From: a virus
DNA: 64,000 bases
IMG/VR virus record: IMGVR_UViG_3300046832_000578
Direction: 5' to 3' (one strand)
Shown: piece after piece, positions 1 through 45,187 of the stretch
Layout of the letters: every line of letters begins with the position of its first letter
How positions within the stretch are numbered: the first letter of the stretch is position 1
Notes under the pieces: model-generated
Databases searched by the model: none
Seen by the model: the letters and a program-made list of their open reading frames with translations, nothing else
What the model was told of the DNA's origin: nothing
Program-made: the position numbers and the translations under genes

Positions 1-1
1 A

Positions 2-577
2 ACTCTATTACTCGAATATATTAAACACAATTCCACTGCAAATATTGAGCAATTATTGGCCAGTGTTATTAAAAGTCTATTCTATCAAAAAGGATATAAT
101 TTATCTTTAGTTGATAATTCGAAATTAGACATTGAATTTTTACAAAAAAGTATTTTAACCAATTCTGAGATAGAGCACTTTGTTAAAGAAAACGAAGAAT
201 TGATTAAAGCACTTTGTGACATCTTAGATGGAACTTTACTATATGCAATTAAAAATTTAAATGCTTATAAAGAAGAACTTGGAGATTTTATAACAAATAA
301 CATAGTAGAAGAAAAACAAGAAATAGGAAAAACATTTGTTAATCTATTTCAAAACGAAACTTTTAATTCTCACTATTATGCATCAATTCCAAAATTTGAT
401 AAAATTAAATATTTTGATTTTTACTTTGATAGACCAATCTATTCAGGTAAGACACTTATGACTTATATAACAGGTGGTTGTATTATTTTCCCTCTGTTAA
501 AGATGATATTAGATAATTCATTTACTCCACAACAATTACAAAATATTTACGAAGAGACAAATGTTACATCTCTATAA
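2..577 (+). CDS. Hypothetical protein of the radical SAM cluster, 5'-truncated by the window edge
   Basis: The frame of ORF 56..577 is open back to position 2 (TLLLEYIKHNST...), so the true start probably lies upstream. Overlaps the next gene. No motif recognised. Confidence 0.6.
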   Translation, partial: TLLLEYIKHNSTANIEQLLASVIKSLFYQKGYNLSLVDNSKLDIEFLQKSILTNSEIEHFVKENEELIKALCDILDGTLLYAIKNLNAYKEELGDFITNNIVEEKQEIGKTFVNLFQNETFNSHYYASIPKFDKIKYFDFYFDRPIYSGKTLMTYITGGCIIFPLLKMILDNSFTPQQLQNIYEETNVTSL

Positions 578-1445
578 TTCTTGTTATGCATATCCATATG
601 CAATGTTCGATCCATCTTCTGCAGATTATATTGTAGTTGGCGACAAACACGCAATTTTAGGTGCGGGAGTTGAGAATAGTTTTTATTATAATAATGTGTT
701 CATACATCAGTGTTATGCTCGTTTTAAAACATACGAAGATTTTATTAATAGTAATCTACTATTACCTGCATTTAGCAACAAACAAAAATTTATCATCTAT
801 TGTGACAACGAAACTCTAATAAAATTATTTACTGCTAAACTTAAATCACATATTCAGTTTTTTGATAATAGTTTGTATTTTGATCTTGCTAAACTATTTG
901 GTGTTCGTTTAAAAATTAAATCAAAACTAATTGATTCTTCCAATAAAGAAATCATTAACGATCTTGGTGATACTTTTATAGAACTAAATTCAATACCAAA
1001 TGTTAGTAAATTTCCGATAGATCCTTATTGGGTTTGGGAGAATGCTGGAATTGAATGGAAAGTTGCAAATAGAAATTGTGGTGTTCCAAACAGTCACATT
1101 AACATATTAAACGATCTTGTGAATCGTTATGTTTATTCGTTTTTTGATGAAGCACAAGAAAGTTATCTTTCAAGAAAAACTGGTGGCTGGGCAGTAGATG
1201 TAAATAATCAGCGATTTAGTACAGTAGCTTCCATGAAAGAATTATACATGGAAATGCGAAAAGAAATAGCGTTGTTTACAGATCCATTAATTTTACAATT
1301 TTTTGAAACTGGGGTCACCGAAGAATTGTTAAATGATCCAAAATTTTTATTACTGGTATCCAATGATAAAGTAGATACTTGGTTGATTAGATGGTTAATG
1401 AGATTACCACAATCAAAAATCACACAGTTAGGTTTAATAGCATGA
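561..1445 (+). CDS. Hypothetical protein, probable paralogue of the next gene (IYCD motif)
   Basis: 294 aa ORF; N-terminus MLHLYNSCY and internal KFIIYCDNE resemble the next ORF; GAG-type SD upstream. Confidence 0.7.
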   Translation: MLHLYNSCYAYPYAMFDPSSADYIVVGDKHAILGAGVENSFYYNNVFIHQCYARFKTYEDFINSNLLLPAFSNKQKFIIYCDNETLIKLFTAKLKSHIQFFDNSLYFDLAKLFGVRLKIKSKLIDSSNKEIINDLGDTFIELNSIPNVSKFPIDPYWVWENAGIEWKVANRNCGVPNSHINILNDLVNRYVYSFFDEAQESYLSRKTGGWAVDVNNQRFSTVASMKELYMEMRKEIALFTDPLILQFFETGVTEELLNDPKFLLLVSNDKVDTWLIRWLMRLPQSKITQLGLIA

Positions 1446-2413
1446 TATATCTTTTCGATAATTGTTATCTATCAACTACAAATAGTATTGTTGAAAAATC
1501 TAAACAGATTTGGATAGGGTCTCATGCAAAATTAGATCGAGATCCAATGCTCAATCTTACATATGATATTTTACATTCATATAAAGAGGTCAACGATGAT
1601 GAGTTAGAAGAATTATTTAATGAAATTCATGAAGATTATTCGAATATTAAAACTGTAATTTATTGTGATGTTGAGAACTTTATGTATGTATACTCATACT
1701 TCTTTAATGGTGTATTAGAAGAATCTGCTGTTAAAGAATTATACTCATTCGATAGACTTAAAGAAAATTATAGAATTGGTGTATTCGCAACTAGAGATGT
1801 AGAGTTTGTAGATCTACCAAAGACTTTAAAGGGAACAGATACTGCATCTATCTTTTCTTCTTTATTGACTACAACAAGAATAGAAATTGCATTTGCAAAC
1901 GCTATGAGAGGTAATGAAGATGCCTTACAATTCTGCGTGGATCGTGCCACTGAAATGTATGATGGATCTCCTGGATTTTGGTCTAAAGATGCTGAACAAA
2001 ATTTACCAGCATTACTTTCAGATGAAGAATTTACAATTGCAAATTTAACTAATAATGAGTTTATTGATTCTTTTGTGGAACAGTTTGAGATCGATGAAGT
2101 ATTTCCAAATAAAATTGTAGATAAAATTAAAGAACATTTTGATTTTGATTATCTAGAACATTACTTTACTGTAATGAATAATACCACAGAATGGAAACCA
2201 ATGTGGGATCAAGATGCAAATATTTCTAAACAAAAATTTGTTGAGACTTACCTTTTAAATAAAGAGTTTGCGTCTGGCAATCAATTATTATTTCCTAACT
2301 ATTCTAATTTTGATTCAATTAATCCAATTTTCTGGAACACCATTCTCCATAAAAATACAGCATGGCTTGACAAGTATAAAGTGAAAAATGGAACTTATAA
2401 TCAAACCAACTGA
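1442..2413 (+). CDS. Hypothetical protein, probable paralogue of the previous gene (IYCD motif)
   Basis: Start moved to ATG 1442 (ATGA overlap with the upstream stop); MIYLFDNCY and KTVIYCDVE. Confidence 0.7.
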   Translation: MIYLFDNCYLSTTNSIVEKSKQIWIGSHAKLDRDPMLNLTYDILHSYKEVNDDELEELFNEIHEDYSNIKTVIYCDVENFMYVYSYFFNGVLEESAVKELYSFDRLKENYRIGVFATRDVEFVDLPKTLKGTDTASIFSSLLTTTRIEIAFANAMRGNEDALQFCVDRATEMYDGSPGFWSKDAEQNLPALLSDEEFTIANLTNNEFIDSFVEQFEIDEVFPNKIVDKIKEHFDFDYLEHYFTVMNNTTEWKPMWDQDANISKQKFVETYLLNKEFASGNQLLFPNYSNFDSINPIFWNTILHKNTAWLDKYKVKNGTYNQTN

Positions 2414-3434
2414 GTTATGTAATTTTAAGTGCACCTTTTGTTCATCAACCAAAATCGTAGAAGACAAAGCAAGCACTCTTGATCATCAGCACATTTTTGA
2501 TTTTTTAAAAAGATTTCCAAACACAAATAGTATTATTGTCAATGGCGGAGATCCGCTAATGATGAAACCAGAATACTACTTCACTATACTTGACTATATT
2601 GAAGAACACAATCTCCCAACAAACATAAGTTTCACCACAAATCTCTGGGCATTCTATAAGAAACCAGAGATGTGGACACCTTTATTCAAACACCCAAGAG
2701 TTGCAGTTACAACAAGTTTTCAATATGGATTTGGTCGTGTAATATCAGGAACCAGAGTCTATACTGAAAAAGACTTTTGGAATGTTAGCGATTTGTTCCT
2801 AAAAGAAGTTGGTTATCGTCCAGGATTTATTGCAGTTATCTCTGAAGAAAATGAGAAACATGCAATTCGTCATGTGGAGTTAGCCAAGAAAATGGATGTC
2901 CAATGTAAGTTAAACTATGCCATGGCATCTGGAGAACAATCATCACCATATCGCCTAAGTAAAATATACGAAATGTATATTGAAGTTTACGAACGAGGAC
3001 TTCATCCGTGGGAGTTTAATACTAAACAGATGATGACTCGTCTGAATAATATCGCTAATGTGTGTCCTCAAGCAAGAAATTGTGATGACCATATTAGAGC
3101 AATGAATCCAGAGGGTGATTATTACTCTTGTGGAGCGATGGGTGACGATAAAGAATATCCAATTAACTTTGTAAAGGAAGTTAAAGAAGGTGGTTTTATA
3201 ACTCCACTGCAAAACGCACCAGAGTTGTTTTCATTGAAAGATGAATGTGTTACTTGTCCGATGTTTAGTATTTGCAACGGATGTAAGAAAACGATTAAAG
3301 ATTTGAAACAGCATGGAATGGTTGAAGAGCATTGTTCTCATATGAAACAGTTGGCTCCAAGAATTATACAAATTAACAGTGAAACAGATTATGTCGAAGC
3401 AACTCAAAGAATCCATAAGAATCTCGTTTCTTAA
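2388..3434 (+). CDS. Radical SAM protein with SPASM/twitch-like C-terminal Cys cluster (anSME/peptide maturase-like)
   Basis: IIKPTELCNFKCTFC (CX3CX2C), NGGDPL motif, FTTNL; C-terminal CPQARNC...YSC...ECVTCPMFSICNGC...HC. Confidence 0.9.
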   Translation: MELIIKPTELCNFKCTFCSSTKIVEDKASTLDHQHIFDFLKRFPNTNSIIVNGGDPLMMKPEYYFTILDYIEEHNLPTNISFTTNLWAFYKKPEMWTPLFKHPRVAVTTSFQYGFGRVISGTRVYTEKDFWNVSDLFLKEVGYRPGFIAVISEENEKHAIRHVELAKKMDVQCKLNYAMASGEQSSPYRLSKIYEMYIEVYERGLHPWEFNTKQMMTRLNNIANVCPQARNCDDHIRAMNPEGDYYSCGAMGDDKEYPINFVKEVKEGGFITPLQNAPELFSLKDECVTCPMFSICNGCKKTIKDLKQHGMVEEHCSHMKQLAPRIIQINSETDYVEATQRIHKNLVS

Positions 3435-5268
3435 TATTGATTTAAGAGTTCCTATTGTAAGGTTGCCGATTAACTGGCTTAACTTTAAGAACTATTATAT
3501 TAAACACGGTAAGTATGCGTCACATGTAAAATGGGAAGAACCAATTCTAAATTTAGAAGATTGGTCATTTGAAGATATCGTTGACTACTACGATAAACAA
3601 GATTCTGACATTTATGCATTTTCTAGTTATCTTTGGAGTCACATGGCTATTATGGCTGTGGCAAAGGAACTAAAGGAAAGAAACCCAAAAAGAATTATTG
3701 TGCTTGGTGGTCCACATCTTAATATTACGCATAATAAAATTGATTGGTTCTTTAAGAATAAATTTATAGATGCTATTTGTGAACCCACCAGTTATGGTGA
3801 ATGGTTTATTAATGACATTCTTGATCAATTTGTTGAAGGTGATATAGACTGGAAAGAAGTTTCATTTTCAATCTATAAAACTGGTCGTGGTAAAAGCCCA
3901 AATAAAATTGACTTTGAGTTTCCTGGAAGTTTAATTGCAGGTAATGAAGACATTTTATTTAAATGTAAAAATATTGCACTGGAGCGAGGTGTTCCATTAG
4001 TTCTACCCATTGAGTTAACTCGTGGATGTCCCTACGAATGTGTGTTCTGCGAATGGGGTGGTGGAATTGGTGGTAAGGTTATCCGTAAATCTATGAACTT
4101 TATTAAAGAAGATCTAGATTGGATACCTCAGGTTGGTATTGATCAAATTCAAATTCTTGATGCCAACTATGGTATTTACAAAGAAGATGAAGATGTCTCA
4201 AAATATATTGAAGAAATAAAATCGTTTTCTGGTCTTCCAACTCATGTTGAGATTTATGGTATGACCAAGTCTAAACAAGAACGAAGATGGGCAACAATTG
4301 AACCACTGGCAAGAGCAGGTGTGGTTGAACGATATAAATTAAGTTTACAAACTCTTAACAACGAGGTTCTTCGTAACATTAAACGAACTGATATTCCTCG
4401 TGAAAAAGACTTTGAGTTTGCCAAGTATCTATTCGATGAATATGGTATTCGAGCAGACTTTGAATTTATGATGGGTCTTCCAGGTTATACTCAAAACGAC
4501 TTTTATGACGAAGTTGATATTCAGTATGAGTATGGTTATGGGTTGGAACGATACCTTTGGTTATTTCTACCAGACTCTCCTGCATACGATCCTGAATATA
4601 TTAAAAAGTTTAATATTAAAACTGAAAAGATTTGCATTGGTAAATCTAAAATGAATAGTTATTCTTACGATGACATTAATATCTTTAAAGATTACCATAT
4701 ATCATCTGATCCTAAATTTTTATCTGATGTAGAGTTTGTGGTCGAAGCAGATGGTTACACAAGAAAAGACTTTACGGAGTTTTTCTTTATGAATCATTGG
4801 ATACTTGAAAATGTTTCCATGATTGACTTTACAGATACGATAGTTAAGCACAATATTGCAATCGGTAGGCTAGAAAAACCTTCTTTAATTTTTAGGAAAA
4901 TTTATGAAGGTATTACCTCTCCCAGTGAAAATAAATATGTATTGGCAATGCAAGATCTTAATAGTCAGATGTATGATTTAATGATGGGTAACAGGAAAGA
5001 GATCGTAGATTATAAACAATTTAATTTACCGTTTACTGATGTATCTGTTGATTTTTCTTACATTTACAAAGTGTGTGTTTTAGTATTTGAAGAGGATTAT
5101 ATTAAATTTTTAATAGGTATTGGTAAAGAACTTAATCTTGAGATCCCAGAAAATATAGTGGAGCAGTTTAAAGAAAAATTGAATAGTTATAAGAATACTT
5201 TTTCACCAAAATATGATAAATTCTATCAGATAAGAACATACTATGAACGAGTTATTAGAGAAGGTTAA
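3391..5268 (+). CDS. Cobalamin (B12)-binding domain radical SAM protein (class B methyltransferase-like)
   Basis: N-terminal B12-binding-like segment FSSYLWS...AKELKERNPKRIIVLGGPH, then ELTRGCPYECVFCEWG, DANYG, SLQTLN..VLRNIKR, FMMGLPG. Start is ATG 3391 or GTG 3379. Confidence 0.88.
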   Translation: MSKQLKESIRISFLNIDLRVPIVRLPINWLNFKNYYIKHGKYASHVKWEEPILNLEDWSFEDIVDYYDKQDSDIYAFSSYLWSHMAIMAVAKELKERNPKRIIVLGGPHLNITHNKIDWFFKNKFIDAICEPTSYGEWFINDILDQFVEGDIDWKEVSFSIYKTGRGKSPNKIDFEFPGSLIAGNEDILFKCKNIALERGVPLVLPIELTRGCPYECVFCEWGGGIGGKVIRKSMNFIKEDLDWIPQVGIDQIQILDANYGIYKEDEDVSKYIEEIKSFSGLPTHVEIYGMTKSKQERRWATIEPLARAGVVERYKLSLQTLNNEVLRNIKRTDIPREKDFEFAKYLFDEYGIRADFEFMMGLPGYTQNDFYDEVDIQYEYGYGLERYLWLFLPDSPAYDPEYIKKFNIKTEKICIGKSKMNSYSYDDINIFKDYHISSDPKFLSDVEFVVEADGYTRKDFTEFFFMNHWILENVSMIDFTDTIVKHNIAIGRLEKPSLIFRKIYEGITSPSENKYVLAMQDLNSQMYDLMMGNRKEIVDYKQFNLPFTDVSVDFSYIYKVCVLVFEEDYIKFLIGIGKELNLEIPENIVEQFKEKLNSYKNTFSPKYDKFYQIRTYYERVIREG

Positions 5269-5938
5269 AACTATACCACATCTTCCTCTACTATTCTCAT
5301 TTGATGCTAAGCGAATAGAGAATGAGATTAGAGCGATGCCGTTTCCTCTAATGAGTTATAATGCAAATATACAAAAAGGATATAATCATAGCCCAGATGG
5401 TTGGAATAATCTTTCTTTGTATAGCTACGATGGAAGTATGTTTTGTGACACGAATGAAGGCGATGGTGGTAATGCTTTACTAGAAAGATTTGGTAAATTT
5501 CAAAAAACTGGATTGACAGAATATTTACCCTATACCTATGAGGTTTTAGAGGCTCTTGGTGCAGGAAAGTCTTTATGTAGAATTGAGGAAGTTATGCCGA
5601 GCACCATTATAGGTTGGCATAGCCATGTGTTAGAGTTTCATCAACCAGAGAACATATTGATAGTTCAGCTTCCTATTTGTATTCCAGAAGGATTTAAACA
5701 TTCGGTGGTGGATTATCGACAGTATAGAGGATCAGACTTTAATATAAAACCGATTGTTTCATATGACTCTAAATATATCGAAGGTGTTCCTTATATTTTT
5801 AACTCATATCATTATCACAATGTGTTTAATCATGGATCTACTCCAGCCCTTATGATAAGGTTTTTTGTGGATATAGATGATTTAAACCTAATAGAACCTG
5901 CAATAAATTGTTATTCTGGAGACCTAATCGTAGGTTGA
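5243..5938 (+). CDS. Aspartyl/asparaginyl beta-hydroxylase-like 2OG-Fe(II) oxygenase
   Basis: W..LSL motif, CRIEEVMPSTIIGWHSH (first His pair) and IFNSYHYHNVFNHG (distal His), typical of the cupin/AspH fold. Confidence 0.7.
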   Translation: MNELLEKVKTIPHLPLLFSFDAKRIENEIRAMPFPLMSYNANIQKGYNHSPDGWNNLSLYSYDGSMFCDTNEGDGGNALLERFGKFQKTGLTEYLPYTYEVLEALGAGKSLCRIEEVMPSTIIGWHSHVLEFHQPENILIVQLPICIPEGFKHSVVDYRQYRGSDFNIKPIVSYDSKYIEGVPYIFNSYHYHNVFNHGSTPALMIRFFVDIDDLNLIEPAINCYSGDLIVG

Positions 5939-5952
5939 CTAAATAATAAATA
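5939..5952 (+). promoter_or_regulatory. T4-type late promoter(s), CTAAATA/ATAAATA
   Basis: Two overlapping TAAATA boxes just upstream of the fibre gene at 5986; T4 late consensus is TATAAATA. Confidence 0.55.
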
Positions 5953-5985
5953 ACAAGTATGCTAAGAAACCATATAGGAATATAA

Positions 5986-6882
5986 ATGGCTGCGATTACA
6001 ACTAGAGAAACAGGAACTACTGGTGTCGGTGGAGTTACCAGAAAAAACCTGCCTTTGACGAATGGTGAGATTGACACTAATTTTATCAATCTAAACACTG
6101 ATAAGTTAGAAGCATCTTACACAGGAAATACTAATCTTGTTACTCTGGGAACAGTTACAACAGGAACTTGGAATGCGACTACAATTGCTACTACTCATGG
6201 TGGTACTGGTTTAACTTCCTTTACTTCTGGTGGTGCGGTTTATGCGACTAGCACCTCTGCTCTTACTACTGGAACATTACCTGTAGCTTCTGGTGGCACT
6301 GGAATCACAACTGCTCCGTCTAGTGGTACTCTTTTAATTGGAACATCTGCTGGTGGGTATTCTTCTGCCACATTGACTGGAACTGCAAATAGAGTCACAG
6401 TAACTAATTCCTCTGGTGGTATTACTTTATCTGCTCCGCAGGATATCGCAACAACTTCAAACCCACAGTTTGGTTCATTGGGTATTGGAACTGCTGCATC
6501 AGGAACTGCTGGTGAGATTCGAGCCACTAATCAGATTACATCATACTACTCTGATGAACGATTAAAAGAAGACATCGTAGAAATTACAGATGCCTTAGAA
6601 AAGGTTATGGCACTTCGTGGTGTAACCTACAAACCAAACTCTATTGCAGAGTCATTGGGTTACAAAAAACAAAATGAAGTTGGTGTAATTGCTCAAGATG
6701 TAGAAAAAGTTCTACCTGAAGCAGTGAAACCAGCACCATTTGATATTATGTTATTTGAAAATACAGAGATATCAAGATCTGGAGAGAACTACAAAACTGT
6801 CCAGTACGAAAAATTAGTTCCATTGCTAATCGAAGCAATCAAAGAACTAAATAAAGAAGTTCAGCAGCTAAAAGGGAAATAA
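5986..6882 (+). CDS. Tail fibre/spike-like protein with C-terminal intramolecular chaperone (peptidase S74) domain
   Basis: N-terminal LTNGEIDTNFINLN, Thr/Gly-rich body with GGTG repeats, YYSDERLKEDI auto-cleavage motif, GVIAQDVE, C-terminal coiled coil LLIEAIKEL. Confidence 0.85.
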   Translation: MAAITTRETGTTGVGGVTRKNLPLTNGEIDTNFINLNTDKLEASYTGNTNLVTLGTVTTGTWNATTIATTHGGTGLTSFTSGGAVYATSTSALTTGTLPVASGGTGITTAPSSGTLLIGTSAGGYSSATLTGTANRVTVTNSSGGITLSAPQDIATTSNPQFGSLGIGTAASGTAGEIRATNQITSYYSDERLKEDIVEITDALEKVMALRGVTYKPNSIAESLGYKKQNEVGVIAQDVEKVLPEAVKPAPFDIMLFENTEISRSGENYKTVQYEKLVPLLIEAIKELNKEVQQLKGK

Positions 6883-6887
6883 TTAGC

Positions 6888-6958
6888 TGCACAACCTAGA
6901 TTGGGGAATCTAGGTTTTCAAATGTTTAGGGGATTAAACATCATGCATAAAAAGGGGA
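6888..6958 (+). promoter_or_regulatory. Structured intergenic leader: two hairpins with GGGG(A) loops plus a GGGGA Shine-Dalgarno
   Basis: AACCTAGATT-gggg-AATCTAGGTT (6893-6916), ATGTTTA-ggggat-TAAACAT (6922-6941), third GGGGA at 6954-6958. Confidence 0.55.
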
Positions 6959-6965
6959 ATTCAAT

Positions 6966-8093
6966 ATGCCTTCTACAATCTTAGGCGAACACGCACTCAC
7001 AATTCCAACTGGAACAACCGCAGAAAGACCAGGATCTCCAGCTGCTGGTATGATGAGATTTAATACCAGCACTGGATATCTTGAATACTATAATGTAGGA
7101 ACAAGTTCTTGGTTGGGAATTGGTCAATTATCAGTTTCTGGAGGAACTGGAGCTACATATACCGATGGTGGAACAACTTATGGTGTTGCAGCATTCACAT
7201 CATCTGGATCTTTAAGTATTATTAATGGAGGAACTCTTGATCTTGTGGCTGTCGGTGGTGGTGGTGGTGGTGGTAGCTGGGTTCCAGGTGGTGGTGGAGC
7301 AGGTGGTTTAGTTTCTCTAACAGGACAATATGTTTCTGGTGGAACATATTCTGCAGTCGTTGGTACTGGTGGACCTGGACAGCTGAATCCAGGTAATTAT
7401 GCTTGGCAAACTGGCATCCGATATGGTGGTGATTCATATATTGCTCTAGGTTCTAGTTATGTTATTACTGCAATGGGTGGTGGTCTTGGTGGATCTTATG
7501 ACGGTAATGGCGGTGATGCCAACGCATTAGCTCAAAATGGTGGTTCTGGTGGAGGTAGGGGAATAAATACTGCTAGCAATGGAACTGGATTACAAGTATC
7601 AGGATCTGGCGTAACGACTTCTCCTAATGGAAATACAGTACCTGCAACATCATTAACTGGCGGTTTTGGTAATAATGGTGGAGGTAATGGTTCTAGTAAT
7701 GAAGGTTACGGACAATTATCTGGAGGTGGTGCTGGTGGTGCTCCTGCTGGATATGGTTCTACTAATGGTGGAATGAATGGTAGACAAGTAGGATGGGTTG
7801 GAACATTTAATCAATATGGCACCAATACATCGAATTCAACTTCAGGCACTCGTGGATATTTCTGTGGTGGCGGTGGACAAGGAAATCACTCTGGTGGACC
7901 AGTTGGTTCTGGCGGATATGGTGGCGGTGGAACTGGATCATCTGCCATGAACTCATCAACTCCGCAAGCCCAACAGCCTGGACAAGCCAATACTGGCGGT
8001 GGCGGTGGTGGTGGTGGTATGTCTGGTGGCCAAGCATCAAGAGGTGGAACTGGTGGGTCTGGTTTGCTTTTAGTTAGATATATCGCTTCATAA
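6966..8093 (+). CDS. Glycine-rich virion/tail fibre-associated protein
   Basis: N-terminal IPTGTTAERP...GMMRFN fibre module; VGGGGGGG...GGGGAGG, GGSGGG, ANTGGGGGGG and GGSGLLLVRY glycine-rich domain. Confidence 0.75.
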   Translation: MPSTILGEHALTIPTGTTAERPGSPAAGMMRFNTSTGYLEYYNVGTSSWLGIGQLSVSGGTGATYTDGGTTYGVAAFTSSGSLSIINGGTLDLVAVGGGGGGGSWVPGGGGAGGLVSLTGQYVSGGTYSAVVGTGGPGQLNPGNYAWQTGIRYGGDSYIALGSSYVITAMGGGLGGSYDGNGGDANALAQNGGSGGGRGINTASNGTGLQVSGSGVTTSPNGNTVPATSLTGGFGNNGGGNGSSNEGYGQLSGGGAGGAPAGYGSTNGGMNGRQVGWVGTFNQYGTNTSNSTSGTRGYFCGGGGQGNHSGGPVGSGGYGGGGTGSSAMNSSTPQAQQPGQANTGGGGGGGGMSGGQASRGGTGGSGLLLVRYIAS

Positions 8094-8107
8094 TAGGAAA
8101 AAATAAC

Positions 8108-8482
8108 ATGGCACACTTTGCTAGAATAGATAAAAATAATATAGTAACAGAAGTAATAGTTGTAGAGCAAGAAGTTATTAATTCTGGAGTATTTGGCGAG
8201 CCTGAACAATGGGTACAAACTTCATATAATACATATGGTGGTGTTCATGTTCATGGTGGCACACCTTTTAGAAAAAACTTTGCTGGTAAAGGTATGATTT
8301 GGGACGCAGATCGTGATGCTTTTTATGCACCTAAGCCATTTGCTTCTTGGGTTTTAAATGAAAGCACATGTTATTGGGAACCACCAATAGCAAGTCCAGG
8401 AGATACCGTTGATGAAGATGGTACTGTAAATTCTCATAAATGGGATGAAACTACACAAACATGGATACCCTTTAGTTACTAA
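8108..8482 (+). CDS. Conserved phage protein, typical partner of Gly-rich fibre proteins
   Basis: MAHFARID..NIVTEVIVV, WVQTSYN, FRKNFAG.G, DAFYAPKPFASWVLNE..CYWEPP, WDETTQTW; AGGA SD. Confidence 0.7.
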   Translation: MAHFARIDKNNIVTEVIVVEQEVINSGVFGEPEQWVQTSYNTYGGVHVHGGTPFRKNFAGKGMIWDADRDAFYAPKPFASWVLNESTCYWEPPIASPGDTVDEDGTVNSHKWDETTQTWIPFSY

Positions 8483-8487
8483 AATTA

Positions 8488-8509
8488 AAAACCACCTTTG
8501 GGTGGTTTT
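8488..8509 (+). terminator. Intrinsic terminator
   Basis: AAAACCACC-tttg-GGTGGTTTT hairpin directly after the stop at 8482. Confidence 0.7.
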
Positions 8510-8550
8510 AATATCTAATTTATAGATAAACAATTTATGAGTGAATAATA

Positions 8551-9159
8551 ATGAATTTTACTGAGGTTATACCTTTTGTTACACCACTATATGTAATAAC
8601 TGATTTGAATTATAATTGTATTTTTGAAGATGTCCAAGATATTAAAAATACAACAGGTCACTTCAACTATAGATACAACAATAATGGAAAACAAACATCT
8701 AATTTAATTGACACTACCTTATCCCAACAATATACTGATATTAATAGTTTATTAAATTATTCAGGTGAACTATGTTCTTCTATGCTATCCAGATGGGGAT
8801 TAAATAGAAAGGTAGAATTAACTAATTGGTGGATTAATATTGATGGTGATAGTAACTATTGTTCTACACATATGCATCCAGGTTCGATAATTAGTGGGGT
8901 GTACTATATTAATGTTCCTGAGGGATCAGGTGAAATAGAATTTGAACGACCAGATCCACTAGTGCATTATTTTTATGCAGAAGAACCAAATGAAACTTCA
9001 TACACAATTTATAAAGTTCAACCACAAAAAGGTATGATGATATTATTTCCTTCATACATAAAACATAGAGTTATAGAAAATAAATTTAAAGATAAATCGC
9101 TAGAAAGAATATCCTTAGCGTTTAATTATTCGTTAATACATTCAGATAGAGAAAAATAA
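8551..9159 (+). CDS. Putative 2OG-Fe(II) oxygenase (TIGR02466-like)
   Basis: WININ...HMHPGSIISGVYYI...LFPSYIKHRV...RISLAFN. Confidence 0.85.
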   Translation: MNFTEVIPFVTPLYVITDLNYNCIFEDVQDIKNTTGHFNYRYNNNGKQTSNLIDTTLSQQYTDINSLLNYSGELCSSMLSRWGLNRKVELTNWWINIDGDSNYCSTHMHPGSIISGVYYINVPEGSGEIEFERPDPLVHYFYAEEPNETSYTIYKVQPQKGMMILFPSYIKHRVIENKFKDKSLERISLAFNYSLIHSDREK

Positions 9160-9161
9160 TT

Positions 9162-9446
9162 ATGGCACATTTTAGAGTTTGCATGACTGGCGGTGAGGGT
9201 ATTTTTACCGACGACCAGATTGTTAAAGGAACCTGCACAGATTCTCCAGAGGTTAATTCAGAAATACTACATGTATGGACTACCTTTATGGAAATTGCAG
9301 AAGATGAAAATAAAAAGACTGGACATAAAATTACTGGTTTTATGATGTATGTAAATAATAAAAGAGTTCAAATAGAATATTGGGATCCATTTAATAATAT
9401 TACTATGGATCAATATGACCCTGATAGATTTAAAATGAAAAAGTGA
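9162..9446 (+). CDS. Hypothetical protein
   Basis: 94 aa ORF packed tightly between two oxygenase genes. Confidence 0.6.
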   Translation: MAHFRVCMTGGEGIFTDDQIVKGTCTDSPEVNSEILHVWTTFMEIAEDENKKTGHKITGFMMYVNNKRVQIEYWDPFNNITMDQYDPDRFKMKK

Positions 9447-9458
9447 AAGTGAGATTAA

Positions 9459-10037
9459 ATGTTAGAAGAAATTATACCATTTGCAACTAAAATTTATGTG
9501 TATAGAGTGACACAACCATATAAACACTTGGTTGAAAATATTAAACAACTTAGAGATAGTATTCCAGATGAACACAACATTGGAGCGTCCAATCGTGGTG
9601 GGTGGCAGAGTAAGTATTTTGACTATGGAACACAAGAATGGATTAAAGATATTTTACATGAAATAGCACCACAAGTTACAAAAATTTATAAAGACTATGG
9701 AATAAAACGAGATGTTAAATTAGGTAATTATTGGTTTAACATCAATAAAAAATATGATTATAACATCGCCCATTCTCACCCATGGACTAACATTGTTGGG
9801 GTTCTTTATATAAAAGTGCCAAAGGATAGTGGAGTTCTTAAATTAGTTAGACCTGATGAATGCCAAGAATGGTTAGTTCCAGACGAATTGTCTGAAATTA
9901 ATGCTGGTAACTTTGGAATTGTTCCAGAAGAAGGAATGTTAGTTTTATTCCCAGCATATCTTAAACATTATGTGGAACAGAATAGAACCGAAGACGAGAA
10001 TGACGAAAGAATATCCATATCATTTAATTTTAATTGA
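9459..10037 (+). CDS. Putative 2OG-Fe(II) oxygenase (TIGR02466-like)
   Basis: SNRGGWQS, WFNIN...HSHPWTNIVGVLYI...LFPAYLKHYV...RISISFN. Confidence 0.85.
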   Translation: MLEEIIPFATKIYVYRVTQPYKHLVENIKQLRDSIPDEHNIGASNRGGWQSKYFDYGTQEWIKDILHEIAPQVTKIYKDYGIKRDVKLGNYWFNINKKYDYNIAHSHPWTNIVGVLYIKVPKDSGVLKLVRPDECQEWLVPDELSEINAGNFGIVPEEGMLVLFPAYLKHYVEQNRTEDENDERISISFNFN

Positions 10038-10045
10038 GAAATATT

Positions 10046-10630
10046 ATGAAACAACAAATACCAAATACTACATGGGGTTTAGAAGTAGATACAGTTTCCA
10101 GGTGGGCATATGCTGAAGGTTTATTTACTAATGAAGAGTGTGATCAGATAATAAAACTTGGATATGAATATGAGTTAACTAAATCAGTGACTATTGGTGC
10201 AAGTTCTGAATATAGAGATAGTAGATCGGTCTTTCTAGAACCAAATCCAGATACAAGTTGGATTTATAAAAGACTCACAGATGCTGTTATGGAACTTAAC
10301 TCCAAATTCTTTAATTTTGATTTATTCGGCTTTACTGAAGGATTGCAGTTTACTGAGTATACCGCTCCAGGCGGAAAATATAACCCTCATATTGATAAAC
10401 TATACCTAAAATCTATCAGGAAACTTTCCATTACAGTTCAATTGACAGATCCAAATGAATATGAAGGTGGAGATTTTGAAATACTTGATGAGGTTCCAGG
10501 AGAAAAATTAAAAAGAACTCGTGGAACTTTACTAGCATTTCCAAGTTATACTTTACATGCAGTTACTCCAGTAACTAAGGGAACTAGAAACAGTCTAGTT
10601 AGTTGGATTAGTGGTAAACCTTTTAGATAA
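10046..10630 (+). CDS. 2OG-Fe(II) oxygenase, prolyl 4-hydroxylase/PKHD type
   Basis: FTNEECDQII, LQFTEY, YNPHID, RKLSITVQL, YEGGDF, FPSYTLHAVTPVTKGTRNSLVSW. Confidence 0.9.
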   Translation: MKQQIPNTTWGLEVDTVSRWAYAEGLFTNEECDQIIKLGYEYELTKSVTIGASSEYRDSRSVFLEPNPDTSWIYKRLTDAVMELNSKFFNFDLFGFTEGLQFTEYTAPGGKYNPHIDKLYLKSIRKLSITVQLTDPNEYEGGDFEILDEVPGEKLKRTRGTLLAFPSYTLHAVTPVTKGTRNSLVSWISGKPFR

Positions 10631-10632
10631 CT

Positions 10633-10655
10633 AAGACCCTCTTCGGAGGGTTTTT
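10633..10655 (+). terminator. Intrinsic terminator with UUCG loop
   Basis: ACCCTC-ttcg-GAGGGT followed by a T run. Confidence 0.8.
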
Positions 10656-10682
10656 GTTATTAGAAGTTGCAGTCTCTGGTAT

Positions 10683-10690
10683 TATAAATA
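10683..10690 (+). promoter_or_regulatory. T4-type late promoter TATAAATA
   Basis: Exact T4 gp55 consensus upstream of the virion gene block. Confidence 0.75.
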
Positions 10691-10718
10691 AGATGTATAG
10701 AATTTATTGGATTCCAGA

Positions 10719-11054
10719 ATGGCAACTATTAGCAATCTTTATGTGGACGCTGGAGCGACATACAGTAATATCATCACTGTAACTGCAGCCAATGGTCAGG
10801 CACTGAATCTGGCTGGGTACACTGTCGCTTCTCAAATCAGAAAATCCTACCAATCAAGCGTTGCATATGCTTTTACTGCATCTATATACGATGCTGCAAC
10901 TGGTAAAATCCGATTACAATTAACAAGTGGTCAATCCGAAGCCATTCCTGCGGGAAGATGGCTGTACGATGTAGAGATTACTTCTTCTTCTGGGACAAAA
11001 ACCAGAGTCGTGGAAGGTATCGTAACAGTAAATCCTCAAATTACTCAAATATAA
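10719..11054 (+). CDS. Conserved T4-like virion/baseplate-associated protein
   Basis: MATISNLYVDAGATYS...LNLAGYTVASQIRKSY...GRWLYDVEI...TRVVEGIVTVNP, a family common in aquatic T4-like phages. Confidence 0.7.
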   Translation: MATISNLYVDAGATYSNIITVTAANGQALNLAGYTVASQIRKSYQSSVAYAFTASIYDAATGKIRLQLTSGQSEAIPAGRWLYDVEITSSSGTKTRVVEGIVTVNPQITQI

Positions 11055-41537: not shown

Positions 41538-41711
41538 ATGGAAAATCAATGGAGTGGTTTTGATGACTTTGAATTGGCATGTTTGTGTGCTGACTACGGA
41601 TACGAAGATGCACTTGAGATTGTAGAAATCTTGCCTGTGAAATTAGGTAATCGTGCACAAATTGAAACACTGCTAACCCAGCACGAATTTGAAATGGCAT
41701 TCGGAGAATAA
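41538..41711 (+). CDS. Small hypothetical early protein
   Basis: GGAG SD, immediately downstream of a promoter. Confidence 0.6.
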   Translation: MENQWSGFDDFELACLCADYGYEDALEIVEILPVKLGNRAQIETLLTQHEFEMAFGE

Positions 41712-41718
41712 ATATATT

Positions 41719-43902
41719 ATGGAAATGAAAGCATCTGATCTATCCGCAAGACTTCTTGCCACTGAAAATCTTTCAGTGATTCGTGCAAGAACTCGCACTG
41801 CATCTTTCGACATCAAGTCACGAGTGTTGACTCTTCCGATGTGGAAAGACATGACTCCCGAAATTGAAGACATGCTCATTGGGCACGAAGTTGGTCACGC
41901 ATTATATACGCTAGACCAGTATACAGACCCAATTAAAGAAAACCCTAAGATTATGGGTTACATGAATGTTCTCGAAGATGTTCGTATCGAGAAACTAATC
42001 AAACGCAAGTATCCAGGATTGCGTAAACGCATGAATGAAGGATACCGACAACTCAACGATCGTGATTTCTTTGGCACTAAACAAGTCCAAAACTTTGCAG
42101 ATCTTCTCTTGATTGACAAAATCAATTTATACTTCAAAGCAGGATTCTCTTGTGGTGTTACATTCACACCTGATGAAAAGATATTTGTGAATCGTGCAGA
42201 GCGTACTGAAACAGTTGAAGAAGTTATTGAATTGGCACAAGATGTTTATGCATATGCCAAACAACAGGCTGAAGAGCGCAAGCAACGCATGAAAGAAGAA
42301 AACCCTCAAGACTTCGAAGATGAAGACGAGGAAGATCCAATTTATGCTGACTTTGATGATTTGGATATGGATGGTGATTGGGATGAACAGGAAGACGATG
42401 AACCTGATTTGAAACCAACATCTTCACCGAAGAATCAAAACGATGAACGCAAACAGGAAGACGATGAACCTGATTTGGAATCTCAAACAGATCGTGCCTT
42501 CCAAAGTAAACTTGAGGATCTTGCAGACGAAAATACAGAGTACAAGTATTGGAAGTTTGATACTGCACCTAAAGATATTATTGTTGGGTACAAACAAATT
42601 CTAAATGAAACTAAATCACCTGAACTCTGGTCTCAAGAAGAAACAGATGGTAGATATCGTTATGTCAATAAAGAAGACATGCAACGAATCTTTGAGGCAC
42701 AATCAAAAGATTTTGATAACTTCAAGACAGAATCAATTCGTACTGTAAATTATCTTGTCAAAGAATTTGAGATGAAAAAGTCTGCACAATTGTATAAGCG
42801 TGCACAAGTATCAAAGATTGGCTCTCTTGACATGAAGAAACTCTATGCATACAAATTGCAAGATGATTTGTTCAAGCGTGTCACAACGATTCCTAAAGGT
42901 AAGAATCATGGTATGATTCTACTTGTTGATTGGTCTGGTTCGATGAGTGAAGTCTTACAAGATACATTGAAACAAGTTATTAACTTGGCGATGTTCTGTA
43001 ATCGTGTTCAGATTCCATATCGTGTCTTTGCATTCACTGATGGATACAAAGATAAAGCCAATAAAGTTGCTGCAGAGGATTGGGCTGCACACTGCGAAAA
43101 ACTAAAAGAAATTTACAACGCAAAGGTAGAACAAGGCGATATCATTAAGATCGAGGGTTTCCATCTTCTTGAATTGTTTAGCAACAAAATGACTACCAGC
43201 GAGTTTAATAACATGGCTCGTCGTGTATTGGATTATCGTTTCCAATGGAATGAAGGATACAGCACTGGTGGAACACCATTGAATGAAGCATTGGTCTGGT
43301 GTTATCAGAACATTGGTGATTACATGAAGAACAATTCTATTGAGAAGATGACATTCATTACTCTTACTGATGGCGAGGGTGCATCATTGAGTGGTTATGG
43401 ACATCGTTATCTTGAAGAATCTAGAACTGAAATTATTGGCAGTGAATACAAGCGTATCAAAACCAAACATCTTATGCGTGATGAAGTTACTCAGAAAACA
43501 TATGAGATGAGTCGTTACTCAAACTTCCAAGCAGAAATGATTTTGCGTATGATGAAAGATCGTTATGGTATTGCATTGGTAGGATTCCATATCTGTCGTA
43601 ACACTCGTCGTGATTTGTCTGGTGTTCTGAATGCTAATCTACCATCTTTCCGTGGCGATCAATTCTCAGTCATTGAAACATGGAGAAAAGATTTCCGTGC
43701 ACAAGGGTTTGCATCTATCAAAAACACTGGTCGTGATGACTTGTTTATTATCCCACAATCTTCTACCAGAATTGAAGAGGGTGAGTTGGATGTAAAGGCA
43801 GATGCAAATGCAAAAGCGATTGCAAGAAACTTTGGCAAATTCTTGAATGTCAAGAAGACTAGCCGAGTCCTACTCAATCGTTTCGTGGCTCTAGTAGCGT
43901 AA
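41719..43902 (+). CDS. Zincin-like (HEXXH) plus VWA domain protein, CobT-like partner of the CobS/MoxR ATPase
   Basis: HEVGH and NVLEDVRIE, acidic linker, MIDAS DWSGSM, GGTPL, LTDGEG. Confidence 0.85.
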   Translation: MEMKASDLSARLLATENLSVIRARTRTASFDIKSRVLTLPMWKDMTPEIEDMLIGHEVGHALYTLDQYTDPIKENPKIMGYMNVLEDVRIEKLIKRKYPGLRKRMNEGYRQLNDRDFFGTKQVQNFADLLLIDKINLYFKAGFSCGVTFTPDEKIFVNRAERTETVEEVIELAQDVYAYAKQQAEERKQRMKEENPQDFEDEDEEDPIYADFDDLDMDGDWDEQEDDEPDLKPTSSPKNQNDERKQEDDEPDLESQTDRAFQSKLEDLADENTEYKYWKFDTAPKDIIVGYKQILNETKSPELWSQEETDGRYRYVNKEDMQRIFEAQSKDFDNFKTESIRTVNYLVKEFEMKKSAQLYKRAQVSKIGSLDMKKLYAYKLQDDLFKRVTTIPKGKNHGMILLVDWSGSMSEVLQDTLKQVINLAMFCNRVQIPYRVFAFTDGYKDKANKVAAEDWAAHCEKLKEIYNAKVEQGDIIKIEGFHLLELFSNKMTTSEFNNMARRVLDYRFQWNEGYSTGGTPLNEALVWCYQNIGDYMKNNSIEKMTFITLTDGEGASLSGYGHRYLEESRTEIIGSEYKRIKTKHLMRDEVTQKTYEMSRYSNFQAEMILRMMKDRYGIALVGFHICRNTRRDLSGVLNANLPSFRGDQFSVIETWRKDFRAQGFASIKNTGRDDLFIIPQSSTRIEEGELDVKADANAKAIARNFGKFLNVKKTSRVLLNRFVALVA
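42386..42477 (+). repeat. 26-bp direct repeat within the acidic linker
   Basis: AACAGGAAGACGATGAACCTGATTTG at 42386-42411 and 42452-42477 (EDDEPDL twice). Confidence 0.8.
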
Positions 43903-43963
43903 GTTGTTGTTTTTACAGGGGAAACTAATCCCCTGTGACGTGTAGGGTTATTGCAAATAATGC

Positions 43964-43992
43964 TTGTCTTTAATTGCGATTTAGGTAATAAT
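43964..43992 (+). promoter_or_regulatory. Early promoter cassette TTGTCTTTAATT
   Basis: TTGTCT-17 bp-AATAAT, preceded by ACAGGGGA...TCCCCTGT hairpin. Confidence 0.6.
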
Positions 43993-44026
43993 TATGGATG
44001 TAATACTTGATTATGGAGAAAATGTG

Positions 44027-45187
44027 ATGGCAAAAACCGATACCCTGTTCCGTGAACAGTTTGAAGCAAAGATGCACGAATTGCACCCAGATGTGCAAAC
44101 TCGTGGTACTGTATCCCGTCCAGAATTGCTGGCTGTGATGCAAGCATTAAAGACTGAGAAATATCCTCTTTGGCTTATGAAAGATAAAGTTGGTCGTGGT
44201 CTATATGCAATTGATGGTGGTACTCATGCAGTTGTTGGAAACACTGCACTGAAACCTAAGGTTGAAACAAAACAAGAATCATTTATTGTGGACTACACTA
44301 ACACTGAAGCACTCATTCCAAAGAAAGATCCGAACTTTGTACCATTCGGTAACTACAATGATTTGGAACATATTATCAAGTCAGGTATCTTTTATCCTGC
44401 ATACATTTCTGGTCCAACTGGGAATGGCAAGTCAACGATGGTCGAACAAATTTGTGCAAAGCATAAGCGTCCATTGATTCGTGTTAATCTTAACATGATG
44501 ACTGACGAAGAACAACTCATCGGTTCCAAAACATTGGAAAATGGTAATGTGGAGATTATCGAGGGTCCAGTTCTTATCGCCATGCGCAATGGTACTGCAC
44601 TCTTGCTTGATGAGATTGATGCTGGCTCTGCCAATACTCTGCTCTGCTTGCAACCAATTCTTGAGGGTAAACCATACTACTTCAAACTCAAGAATGAGAT
44701 GATTGTTCCAGCTGAAGGATTCAACGTCTTTGCCACTGCCAATACTAAGGGTAAGGGTTCAGATGATGGTCGTTACATCGGTACAAACATTTTGAACGAA
44801 GCATTCTTGGAGCGATTCGCTGTGACATTCGAACAGGAATATCCTAATGCGAAGATCGAAGTTAAGATTATTAAGAATCTCATGGAAACTTATTCATGCT
44901 TAAATGAACAGTTTGCAGAGACACTCGTGAAGTGGGCGGATGCAATTCGTCGTACTTTCGAGGATGGTGGTGTGGATGAAACTATTACTACTCGTCGTAT
45001 GATTCACATTGTTCGTGCTTATGCAATCTTTAAGACCGAACAGAAAGCAGTTGAGTTATGTTGCAATCGTTTCGATGCTGCAACAAAGACTGCATTCATC
45101 GACTTGTATGATAAAGTTGCAAATCCGCAACCAGAGGTTGTCGTGGAGCAACCAGTTGCAACACCAGAAGACGAGGTTCCATTTTAA
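44027..45187 (+). CDS. cobS: CobS-like MoxR AAA+ ATPase
   Basis: PKKDPNFVPFG, GPTGNGKS, LLLDEID, LQPILEG, ATANTKGKGSDDGRYIGTNILNEAFLERF, ITTRR. Confidence 0.9.
   Translation: MAKTDTLFREQFEAKMHELHPDVQTRGTVSRPELLAVMQALKTEKYPLWLMKDKVGRGLYAIDGGTHAVVGNTALKPKVETKQESFIVDYTNTEALIPKKDPNFVPFGNYNDLEHIIKSGIFYPAYISGPTGNGKSTMVEQICAKHKRPLIRVNLNMMTDEEQLIGSKTLENGNVEIIEGPVLIAMRNGTALLLDEIDAGSANTLLCLQPILEGKPYYFKLKNEMIVPAEGFNVFATANTKGKGSDDGRYIGTNILNEAFLERFAVTFEQEYPNAKIEVKIIKNLMETYSCLNEQFAETLVKWADAIRRTFEDGGVDETITTRRMIHIVRAYAIFKTEQKAVELCCNRFDAATKTAFIDLYDKVANPQPEVVVEQPVATPEDEVPF

Follow-up and report, generated by a model that had tools for sequence, protein, structure and literature searches.

A candidate radical SAM maturation cassette for a Cys-His-tailed protein beside the fiber genes of a marine T4-like phage

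The first 6 kb of a 64,000-nucleotide stretch of viral DNA (IMG/VR record IMGVR_UViG_3300046832_000578, hereafter the window) hold six genes, among them two radical S-adenosylmethionine (SAM) enzymes and a putative hydroxylase, that end just before a tail-fiber gene. We propose, with a probability of about 0.6, that they belong to an enzyme kit that matures the invariant Cys-His repeat tail of a dedicated small protein and that this protein is built into the fiber/baseplate region of the virion. The observations behind the proposal are gene content, synteny, the pattern of conservation, and the presence of one distant homolog in virus particles, from which we infer that the tail is the substrate. 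The phage itself is an uncultured marine T4-like myophage, because genes for terminase, sheath, portal, major capsid protein, and DNA polymerase mark the remaining window as a T4-like structural and replication module and the major capsid protein is 63-65% identical to those of Methylophilales phage Melnitz, pelagiphage HTVC008M, and cyanomyophages.

All six open reading frames (ORFs) lie on the plus strand, the first being open at its 5' end, and neighbors overlap by 4-56 nucleotides (nt); a gap of 47 bp then separates the last of them from the fiber gene (Table 1). A first-pass annotation of the window had described this arrangement and had supposed that the cluster runs past the left edge. 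The ORF list and the Peptidase_S74 domain of the fiber bear out the former statement, and two near-identical contigs bear out the latter: IMG/VR contig IMGVR_UViG_3300032326_000475, which was found by an exact-word scan and is 99.4% identical to window positions 1-4563, and a second contig (L009) that is 98.7% identical over positions 1-10884. Upstream, both encode a DUF4815 giant structural protein, a 78-amino-acid (aa) virion protein (phrog_473), and a 404-aa fiber-like protein, followed by a second radical SAM/SPASM enzyme, which we call rSAM_A (359 aa), a small protein that we call the tail protein, and the full-length version of the first window gene, 05 (L004:3987-4775:-). The tail protein has 171-181 aa (173-176 aa in these two contigs) and ends in EEFY-(CHSN)(CHGS)(CHGS)-L/I; in these relatives its motif lies about 220 bp to the left of window position 1, and a motif scan of the window itself found no CHxS tail. 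In the window and the near-identical contigs, the overlapping genes all run in one direction, beginning with the giant structural gene and ending with the fibers. A conserved cassette with a proposed role in maturation is thus cut by the left edge, and the six window genes make up its right-hand two thirds.

A motif-driven, alignment-based scan of IMG/VR yielded 47 loci. The gene for rSAM_A lies directly upstream of that for the tail protein in every one of them, and a homolog of 05 and the SPASM enzyme follow downstream wherever the contig extends that far. Homologs of the SPASM enzyme and of rSAM_A, 39-60% identical (49-60% for the window SPASM enzyme), are encoded by the cultured jumbo phages RSL2, RSF1, the FLC phages, SURPRISE13, RsoM3USA, Phosso, Atu_ph07, and pPa_SNUABM_DT01. 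In the jumbo-phage cassettes that were read from end to end (SURPRISE13, Phosso, Atu_ph07, and DT01), the gene after the rSAM_A homolog encodes a protein ending in (CHxS)x3-R[GS]RR, and RSL2 and its close relatives carry at the same position a copy of the SURPRISE13 tail protein that is 82-89% identical. Scanning prokaryotes, with one genome per species, added eight loci in metagenome-assembled genomes (MAGs), six of them in Bdellovibrionota, and the order rSAM_A, tail protein, 05, SPASM enzyme recurs in most of the eight where contigs extend; the Bdellovibrionota SPASM copies match the phage enzyme at an E value of about 1e-145. Tails of the T4-like clade end in a single Leu or Ile (24 of 24 loci), and an RGRR-type end (RGRR, RSRR, or RTRR) is found in the remaining 23 viral loci and in seven of seven bacterial tails.

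The expectation that the cluster would co-occur with fiber genes in related phages held as well, since the cassette adjoins fiber or baseplate genes in four lineages. The present clade has the DUF4815 giant, phrog_473, and fiber-like proteins upstream and, directly 3' of the cassette throughout, a fiber with a C-terminal Peptidase_S74 intramolecular chaperone. Among the fetched loci, jumbo-phage contigs of over 100 kb have phrog_2163/13857 tail proteins and a phrog_3216 baseplate protein, Atu_ph07 has the giant gp180 and the baseplate wedge gp181/182, and a Bdellovibrio MAG has three Peptidase_S74 proteins directly upstream (L065:2706-6448). Two of these three proteins carry weak pilin-like N-terminal methylation motifs that score under the Pfam cutoff.

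The conservation pattern singles out the tail. Across 39 distinct sequences, among which the bodies drop to about 20% identity, every Cys and His in the three repeats is kept. In the T4-like clade, 21 tails are encoded by 16 DNA versions, and nearly all differences between these are synonymous (TGC/TGT, CAT/CAC, AGY/TCN, and GGN); constraint therefore acts on the peptide. Judged from these alignments, the tail is under strong purifying selection and the body varies along with the fiber genes. Two near-identical phages illustrate the latter point: their enzymes and proteins 05, 06, and 07 are 98-100% identical and their tail proteins 86%, beside 78% for the giant structural protein, 86% for the 78-aa structural protein, and 89% for the fiber. 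By this comparison, the tail protein evolves like the adjacent structural proteins. Across the clade, rSAM_A and the SPASM enzyme keep 87-97% identity in four of five comparisons (63-80% at the extremes), and the tail protein, 05, 06, and 07 fall to 47-73%. Two variations of the tail deserve mention. A jumbo-phage member of 227 aa (L040:7995-8678) has about ten CHxS-type repeats before RGRR, compared with the usual three. In the eight clade loci with both features readable, one AspH-like gene goes with a Leu end and two copies with an Ile end; the sample is small and phylogenetically confounded, and it hints that the last residue matters.

Both core enzymes have the hallmarks of SPASM-type radical SAM maturases. 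In a joint alignment of the two paralogs from phages and Bdellovibrionota, C34, C38, and C41 and six C-terminal cysteines are invariant, and the SPASM model TIGR04085 scores 24.9 bits for the window enzyme and 23.4 bits for rSAM_A, against a cutoff of 27. The best NCBIfam matches of both are peptide maturases (DarE, DynA, and YhhB), all far below their cutoffs; the window enzyme, which is 80-100% conserved within the clade, matches DynA at 3.1e-14 and phrog_1802 at 1.2e-54. Its only match among PDB sequences is anSME (7.6e-4), over the N-terminal ~80 residues only. The assignments made at first sight, a SPASM radical SAM enzyme, a B12 radical SAM enzyme, and an AspH-like protein, held at the level of domains, motifs, and families.

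The AlphaFold2 model of the tail protein comprises a folded body (mean predicted local distance difference test [pLDDT] score, 79.9; predicted template modeling [pTM] score, 0.75) and a disordered stretch made up of the last ~12 residues. As modeled, a folded body with a disordered tail is the geometry expected of an enzyme-accessible core. Foldseek found no match for the body in the PDB, a BFVD search with it returned family members only, and neither the tail protein nor its cassette partners matched any NCBIfam or Pfam model.

Evidence that links such a protein to virus particles comes from Atu_ph07. Its gp170 (L063:8056-8946, ending in CHSSCHASCHNSRSRR), which corresponds to the tail protein in gene order as counted from gp180, in length (296 aa), and in a computed mass equal to the 31.89 kDa of the published table, is among the virion proteins identified by electrospray ionization tandem mass spectrometry, with eight unique peptides and 35.16% coverage (PMC6102473, Table S5). 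The enzymes and partner proteins encoded next to gp170 are missing from the virion list (PMC6102473). In the same data set, gp170 was recovered from gel slices 1-9 with its peak in the top slice, slice 1, alongside proteins of ~90-130 kDa, and the other ~30-kDa virion proteins peak in slices 7-8 (PMC6102473). This position may reflect a high-mass form stable in sodium dodecyl sulfate (SDS), either a multimer or a covalent adduct, a lead that comes from one table and one phage. A separate case is the Ralstonia phage phiRP31, in which ORF78, a 22.9-kDa virion protein, is encoded among the radical SAM genes ORF72-76 (PMC5468394, Table S3); ORF78 could not be tied to the CHxS family, and RP12 and RP31 were not among the tblastn matches.

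The first-pass annotation had left the target open between a peptide and virion proteins such as the adjacent fibers. A virion protein is what the distant homolog in particles supports, and a dedicated small protein is a likelier target than the fibers. It could still be argued that the enzymes act on the adjacent fibers or on other virion proteins and that the Cys-His-tailed protein is a scaffold or an Fe-S/metal carrier, given that fiber or baseplate genes flank the cassette in all four lineages and that Cys/His repeats could bind iron or zinc. We regard this as improbable: the flanking fibers are not homologous across lineages (DUF4815/S74 here, phrog_2163/13857 in jumbo phages, and gp180 in Atu_ph07), the sole nonenzyme partner that stays constant is the tail protein, with its invariant motif, and a protein that served the enzymes as a carrier should not turn up in purified virions from which they are absent.

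RiPP-type tailoring, i.e., that of peptides made on the ribosome and then modified after translation, had also been put forward, and part of that idea stands. The gene logic is RiPP-like, and a candidate precursor, the CHxS-tailed protein of 171-181 aa, is indeed encoded upstream in the near-identical contigs; no RiPP recognition element (RRE) was found there in Pfam or NCBIfam searches. In a classical RiPP, the ~160-aa body would be a long leader, and the modified 13-17-residue tail would be cleaved from it and set free as a peptide, for example a metallophore, a toxin, or a signal. The cassette is laid out like a RiPP cluster, with precursor and core beside SPASM maturases, long structured leaders are known from proteusins (PMC10858898), and the Cys/His composition would suit metal binding. 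Nevertheless, release of the tail is unlikely. Searches of the T4-like, jumbo-phage, and Bdellovibrionota versions of the cassette, which lies within late structural operons, turned up no leader protease, exporter, or immunity gene; the body is confidently predicted to fold and is hypervariable like host-recognition proteins; and a distant homolog was recovered from virions with peptides that cover 35% of the protein. Given that no RRE, leader protease, or exporter was found, we favor protein maturation over a classical released RiPP.

The three proteins that had been left without a function at first are real genes, with 113 representative homologs for 05, 90 for 06, and homologs throughout the clade for 07. 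In relatives, 05 directly follows the tail-protein gene; its AlphaFold2 model is confident (pLDDT, 93.5; pTM, 0.91) and has no PDB match (Foldseek E of at least 0.4; best Z score in the wide VIA search, 3.3). All homologs of 06 are at least 37% identical except for fragments, and 06 has no Pfam, NCBIfam, or PHROG match. Its N-terminal ~90 residues are homologous to 07 (hhalign, 82%, E of 1e-5), and the N-terminal motifs of 06 and 07 resemble those of ~350-aa jumbo-phage genes at the same position, such as DT01_063 and SURPRISE13_073. Protein 07 occupies the same position in all clade relatives, where its start corresponds to position 1442, probably the true one here as well, and it has no radical SAM motif. 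Look-ups of 05 and 06 in the ESM Atlas scored below 0.9. We considered whether 05, 06, and 07 are degenerate radical SAM proteins, which can be ruled out, as hhalign against a radical SAM profile shows no relation. In sequence comparison they evolve at the rate of the substrate and not at that of the enzymes, which suggests a role in dealing with the variable body, as substrate-specific adaptors or chaperones.

The fifth gene (3379-5268) encodes a cobalamin-dependent enzyme with a B12-binding domain (PF02310, 1.2e-06, 28.8 bits against a cutoff of 32.1) and a radical SAM domain (PF04055, 4.5e-13) whose CX3CX2C motif reads CPYECVFC. Its relatives include KedN5 (1.5e-36, 125.8 bits against a cutoff of 700) and, among solved structures, TokK (3.8e-28) and CysS (2.3e-24), the matches to the last two spanning both domains. 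It scores under the cutoffs of named subfamilies, with 40.2 bits against 600 for PhpK and 38.0 against 281.85 for TIGR03975, a RiPP C-methyltransferase; most of its homologs carry both Pfam domains, and tblastn found no match in GenBank phages. In L013-L036, each of the nine clade loci whose DNA extends far enough downstream has the gene for the B12 enzyme, joined by one or two AspH-like genes. None of the 23 viral loci with RGRR tails has the B12 enzyme and AspH-like genes; these loci have extra radical SAM paralogs, JmjC/cupin proteins, and 2-oxoglutarate (2OG) oxygenases instead. A viral scan with an intermediate B12 relative (P0157) likewise recovered this clade only.

Outside viruses, four Bdellovibrionota MAGs encode B12 homologs of the same length, 30-34% identical, and in three of the four the gene lies beside or near cassette genes (a radical SAM paralog and a 2OG oxygenase in two, the main cassette in the third). 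In a FastTree phylogeny, which was midpoint-rooted and whose branch supports were not inspected, the Bdellovibrionota enzymes cluster with those of the phages and separately from about 45 further metagenomic relatives. The B12 genes next to cassette genes in Bdellovibrionota make this enzyme an accessory that recurs with the system and is not tied to the loss of RGRR; among viral loci it is specific to the T4-like clade, and it is probably a C-methyltransferase. The thought that the B12 and AspH-like enzymes replace enzymes that handle RGRR is weakened, as Bdellovibrionota B12 enzymes co-occur with RGRR tails.

The nearest characterized relatives of the B12 enzyme, TokK, CysS, and KedN5, act on small molecules, and two SURPRISE13 cassette genes are annotated as dihydrofolate reductase, so one might read the cassette as a small-molecule or cofactor pathway that builds or alters a metabolite, lipid, sugar, or nucleotide. 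Such a pathway is very improbable in view of the SPASM domains of both core enzymes, which score best against peptide maturases, and of a T4-like cassette that has no sugar, lipid, or nucleotide enzymes; it would also leave the invariant tail protein unexplained.

The sixth gene encodes an AspH-like cupin. The window protein itself scores 20.7 bits on PF05118, for which the cutoff is 22.6, and the family is better defined: 20 of 23 aligned members match PF05118 at an E value of 0.01 or less (best, 1.9e-10) and seven match PF13759. H126, H128, H190, H192, N193, and R113 are invariant in the 23 sequences, and this invariance suggests that the HxH...HYHN motif is a metal-binding site. The family profile found no relatives among PDB sequences, and tblastn found no match in GenBank phages. 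The motif differs from that of human AspH, which has a two-His metal site, in its HxH...HxH-N arrangement. We also considered, and rejected, the clade-specific Asn in the first repeat as the residue that the enzyme hydroxylates, since locus L036 has two AspH-like copies and a tail with neither Asn nor Asp.

The place of the AspH-like cupin in the pathway is less secure, because viral contigs that lack the cassette have AspH-like relatives, about 30% identical, either singly or in tandem triplets. The cupin, and perhaps the B12 enzyme, could be independent auxiliary genes that happen to lie between cassette and fiber, an option made more attractive by three further 2OG oxygenase genes a few kilobases downstream and by the frequency of oxygenase genes of the AspH/2OG kind in marine T4-like phages. 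We nonetheless find it rather doubtful. The start of the AspH-like gene reaches 26 nt into the end of the B12 gene, and every clade locus, over a sequence divergence of 37-100%, has one or two copies in precisely this place. Cupin or 2OG oxygenases are found in jumbo-phage and Bdellovibrionota cassettes too, and B12 homologs adjoin cassette genes in Bdellovibrionota. On the strength of position and of the translational overlap with the B12 gene, the AspH-like enzyme is probably part of the pathway. A viral contig in which three tandem AspH-like paralogs are followed by a 2OG oxygenase (L084:385-2579) has no radical SAM genes in view.

Our working model for the maturation of the tail protein is as follows. 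rSAM_A and the SPASM enzyme would install intramolecular cross-links in the (Cys-His-x-Ser)x3 tail, either Cys-derived thioethers or His-centered three-residue links. Thioether or carbon-carbon cross-linking is the likely chemistry because RiPP maturases of the SPASM type form such links. In the T4-like clade, the TokK/CysS-like B12 enzyme would next add one or more C-methyl groups at unactivated carbons, and the AspH-like cupin would then probably hydroxylate a side chain, with 05, 06, and 07 acting as putative substrate-specific adaptors or chaperones. The matured tail would stay on the protein, which would join the fiber/baseplate apparatus.

Several findings weigh against this model. The substrate gene lies outside the window and is taken from contigs that are 98.7-99.4% identical over the shared stretch; modification of the tail is proposed from gene-level facts, and its chemistry is deduced from the behavior of enzyme families. 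The virion evidence comes from one phage, whose gp170 is only about 25% identical to the tail protein of the window phage. Pfam and NCBIfam searches revealed no RRE (PqqD-like) or other known substrate-binding domain in any cassette protein. Neither 05 nor the body of the tail protein has a reliable fold match, the best VIA Z score of the body being 5.0 and the TssK/baseplate rows, at 4.4-4.8, being too weak to use. The exclusive pairing of the B12 and AspH-like genes with RGRR-less tails comes from a single clade, and Bdellovibrionota combine B12 with RGRR; the AspH-like gene, finally, could be an independent marine-phage oxygenase gene.

Among known systems, the closest parallel is the HXS antiphage system, in which the radical SAM proteins HxsB and HxsC and the small partner HxsD mature an HxS repeat in the folded 214-aa protein HxsA (Li et al., Nat Commun 2026, PMC13128918). 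The cassette resembles it in having two radical SAM enzymes and one or more small partners, an H-x-S in each repeat, and a product that remains a protein of about 200 aa. In contrast to HXS, the cassette repeat is Cys-His-x-Ser, occurs exactly three times, and lies at the extreme C terminus of a protein with no peptidoglycan-binding domain or signal peptide. The SPASM enzyme reaches only 31.8 bits on TIGR03977 (HxsC), against a cutoff of 267.9, over residues 8-91; rSAM_A has no Hxs match, and no cassette protein matches an HxsA or HxsD model. The genomic setting differs too, HXS being a bacterial defense locus and the cassette part of a phage structural operon with additional B12 and cupin enzymes. 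By every sequence criterion, the cassette fails as a member of HXS.

The CX3CX2C motif and the SPASM cysteines are shared with RiPP maturases (the triceptide cyclophane enzymes YhhB/XyeB, the daropeptide enzymes DarE/DynA, and the thioether synthases PapB/RumMC), and a short substrate motif repeated three times, with aromatic-type His and with Cys, recalls cyclophane and thioether RiPPs; unlike in these systems, every score against these families is 10-20 times under its cutoff, and the proposed substrate is a protein of about 175 aa whose body is predicted to fold. Like anSME and QhpD/QhpC, the enzymes would be SPASM radical SAM proteins whose targets are Cys or Ser residues of an entire protein and not of a leader-core peptide; they differ from anSME in their NCBIfam score (36.6 against a cutoff of 349), and the tail has no C/S-x-P/A-x-R sulfatase motif. 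The B12 enzyme has the same order of an N-terminal B12-binding domain and a radical SAM domain as TokK/ThnK, CysS, and KedN5 (1e-24 to 1e-36 over about 320 residues). Its C-terminal ~250 residues are unmatched, however, it forms a subfamily of its own with the cassette-linked enzymes of Bdellovibrionota, and its context predicts a protein substrate and not a carbapenem, cystobactamid, or enediyne.

As for what the modified tail does, we suggest, tentatively and as a possibility that falls well short of even odds, that it is a covalent or metal-bridged staple that fixes a hypervariable accessory protein on the fiber/baseplate, and that the same kit serves fiber-like surface structures in Bdellovibrionota. 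A staple would explain why the 32-kDa homolog of Atu_ph07 peaks in the top slice of an SDS gel.

To our knowledge, radical SAM maturation has been described for peptides that are secreted, in a few enzymes, and, from 2026 on, in one antiphage effector; we found no report of it for virus particles in the literature searched, and no published description of the cassette system. If our proposal is correct, the host-recognition machinery of phages has a class of covalent modifications that escapes standard virion proteomics and structure prediction, and B12-dependent protein methylation, which is rare, would be among them. The system occurs widely, in T4-like phages from the sea, in jumbo phages of several groups, and in bacteria that are predators, and it is testable, given that Atu_ph07, RSL2/RSF1, SURPRISE13, DT01, and Phosso are cultured carriers and that the substrate motif is short, invariant, and easily synthesized. 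It also supplies four protein families that have no functional annotation (05, 06, 07, and the body of the tail protein). The variant of the window phage contributes the RGRR-less tail, the B12/AspH accessory set with its Bdellovibrionota counterpart, and the codon-level evidence for constraint.

Table 1. The window genes of the cassette and the fiber gene that follows them
Feature	Position in the window	Strand	Basis or remark
Partner protein 05, 3' part of the gene (full length, 252/262 aa)	2-577	+	phrog_20767, 3.7e-26
Protein 06, 294 aa	561-1445	+	Same family as ~350-aa jumbo-phage cassette genes
Protein 07, 323 aa (340 aa if the start is at 1391)	1442-2413	+	N-terminal paralog of 06
Radical SAM/SPASM enzyme, 348 aa, putative core maturase	2388-3434	+	Radical_SAM, 1.1e-09; CX3CX2C; SPASM-type Cys
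Cobalamin-dependent (class B) radical SAM enzyme, 629 aa	3379-5268	+	B12-binding and Radical_SAM domains
AspH-like cupin metallo-oxygenase, 231 aa, putative hydroxylase	5243-5938	+	PF05118-related; 26-nt overlap with the B12 gene
Tail-fiber protein (context, not part of the enzyme kit)	5986-6882	+	Peptidase_S74, 4.3e-17; tail-fiber PHROGs

The first 6 kb of the window have a GC content of 29-33%, compared with about 35-42% over most of the remainder, and an AT-rich cassette (GC of 0.29-0.33 over positions 1-6000) fits a mobile or separately evolving island. A nucleotide search with positions 1-6000 found no match in GenBank phages, and scans for T4 late promoters and for sigma-70 promoters and terminators gave nothing exceeding chance.

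Between the fiber genes and the next large structural gene lie three tandem 2OG-Fe(II) oxygenase genes (8551-9159, 9459-10037, and 10034-10630; PF13759 at 3.4e-22 and 2.2e-19, PF13640 at 1.3e-14). They are only 23-31% identical to the oxygenases within jumbo-phage cassettes, are not kept beside the cassette in remoter members of the clade, and may be unrelated auxiliary genes. Farther along, in the replication module (41689-45187), a 737-aa phrog_459 "peptidase" without a Pfam match is followed by an AAA+ ATPase of the CbbQ/NirQ/NorQ type (PF07728, 7.1e-17; CbbQ_C, 7.3e-05).

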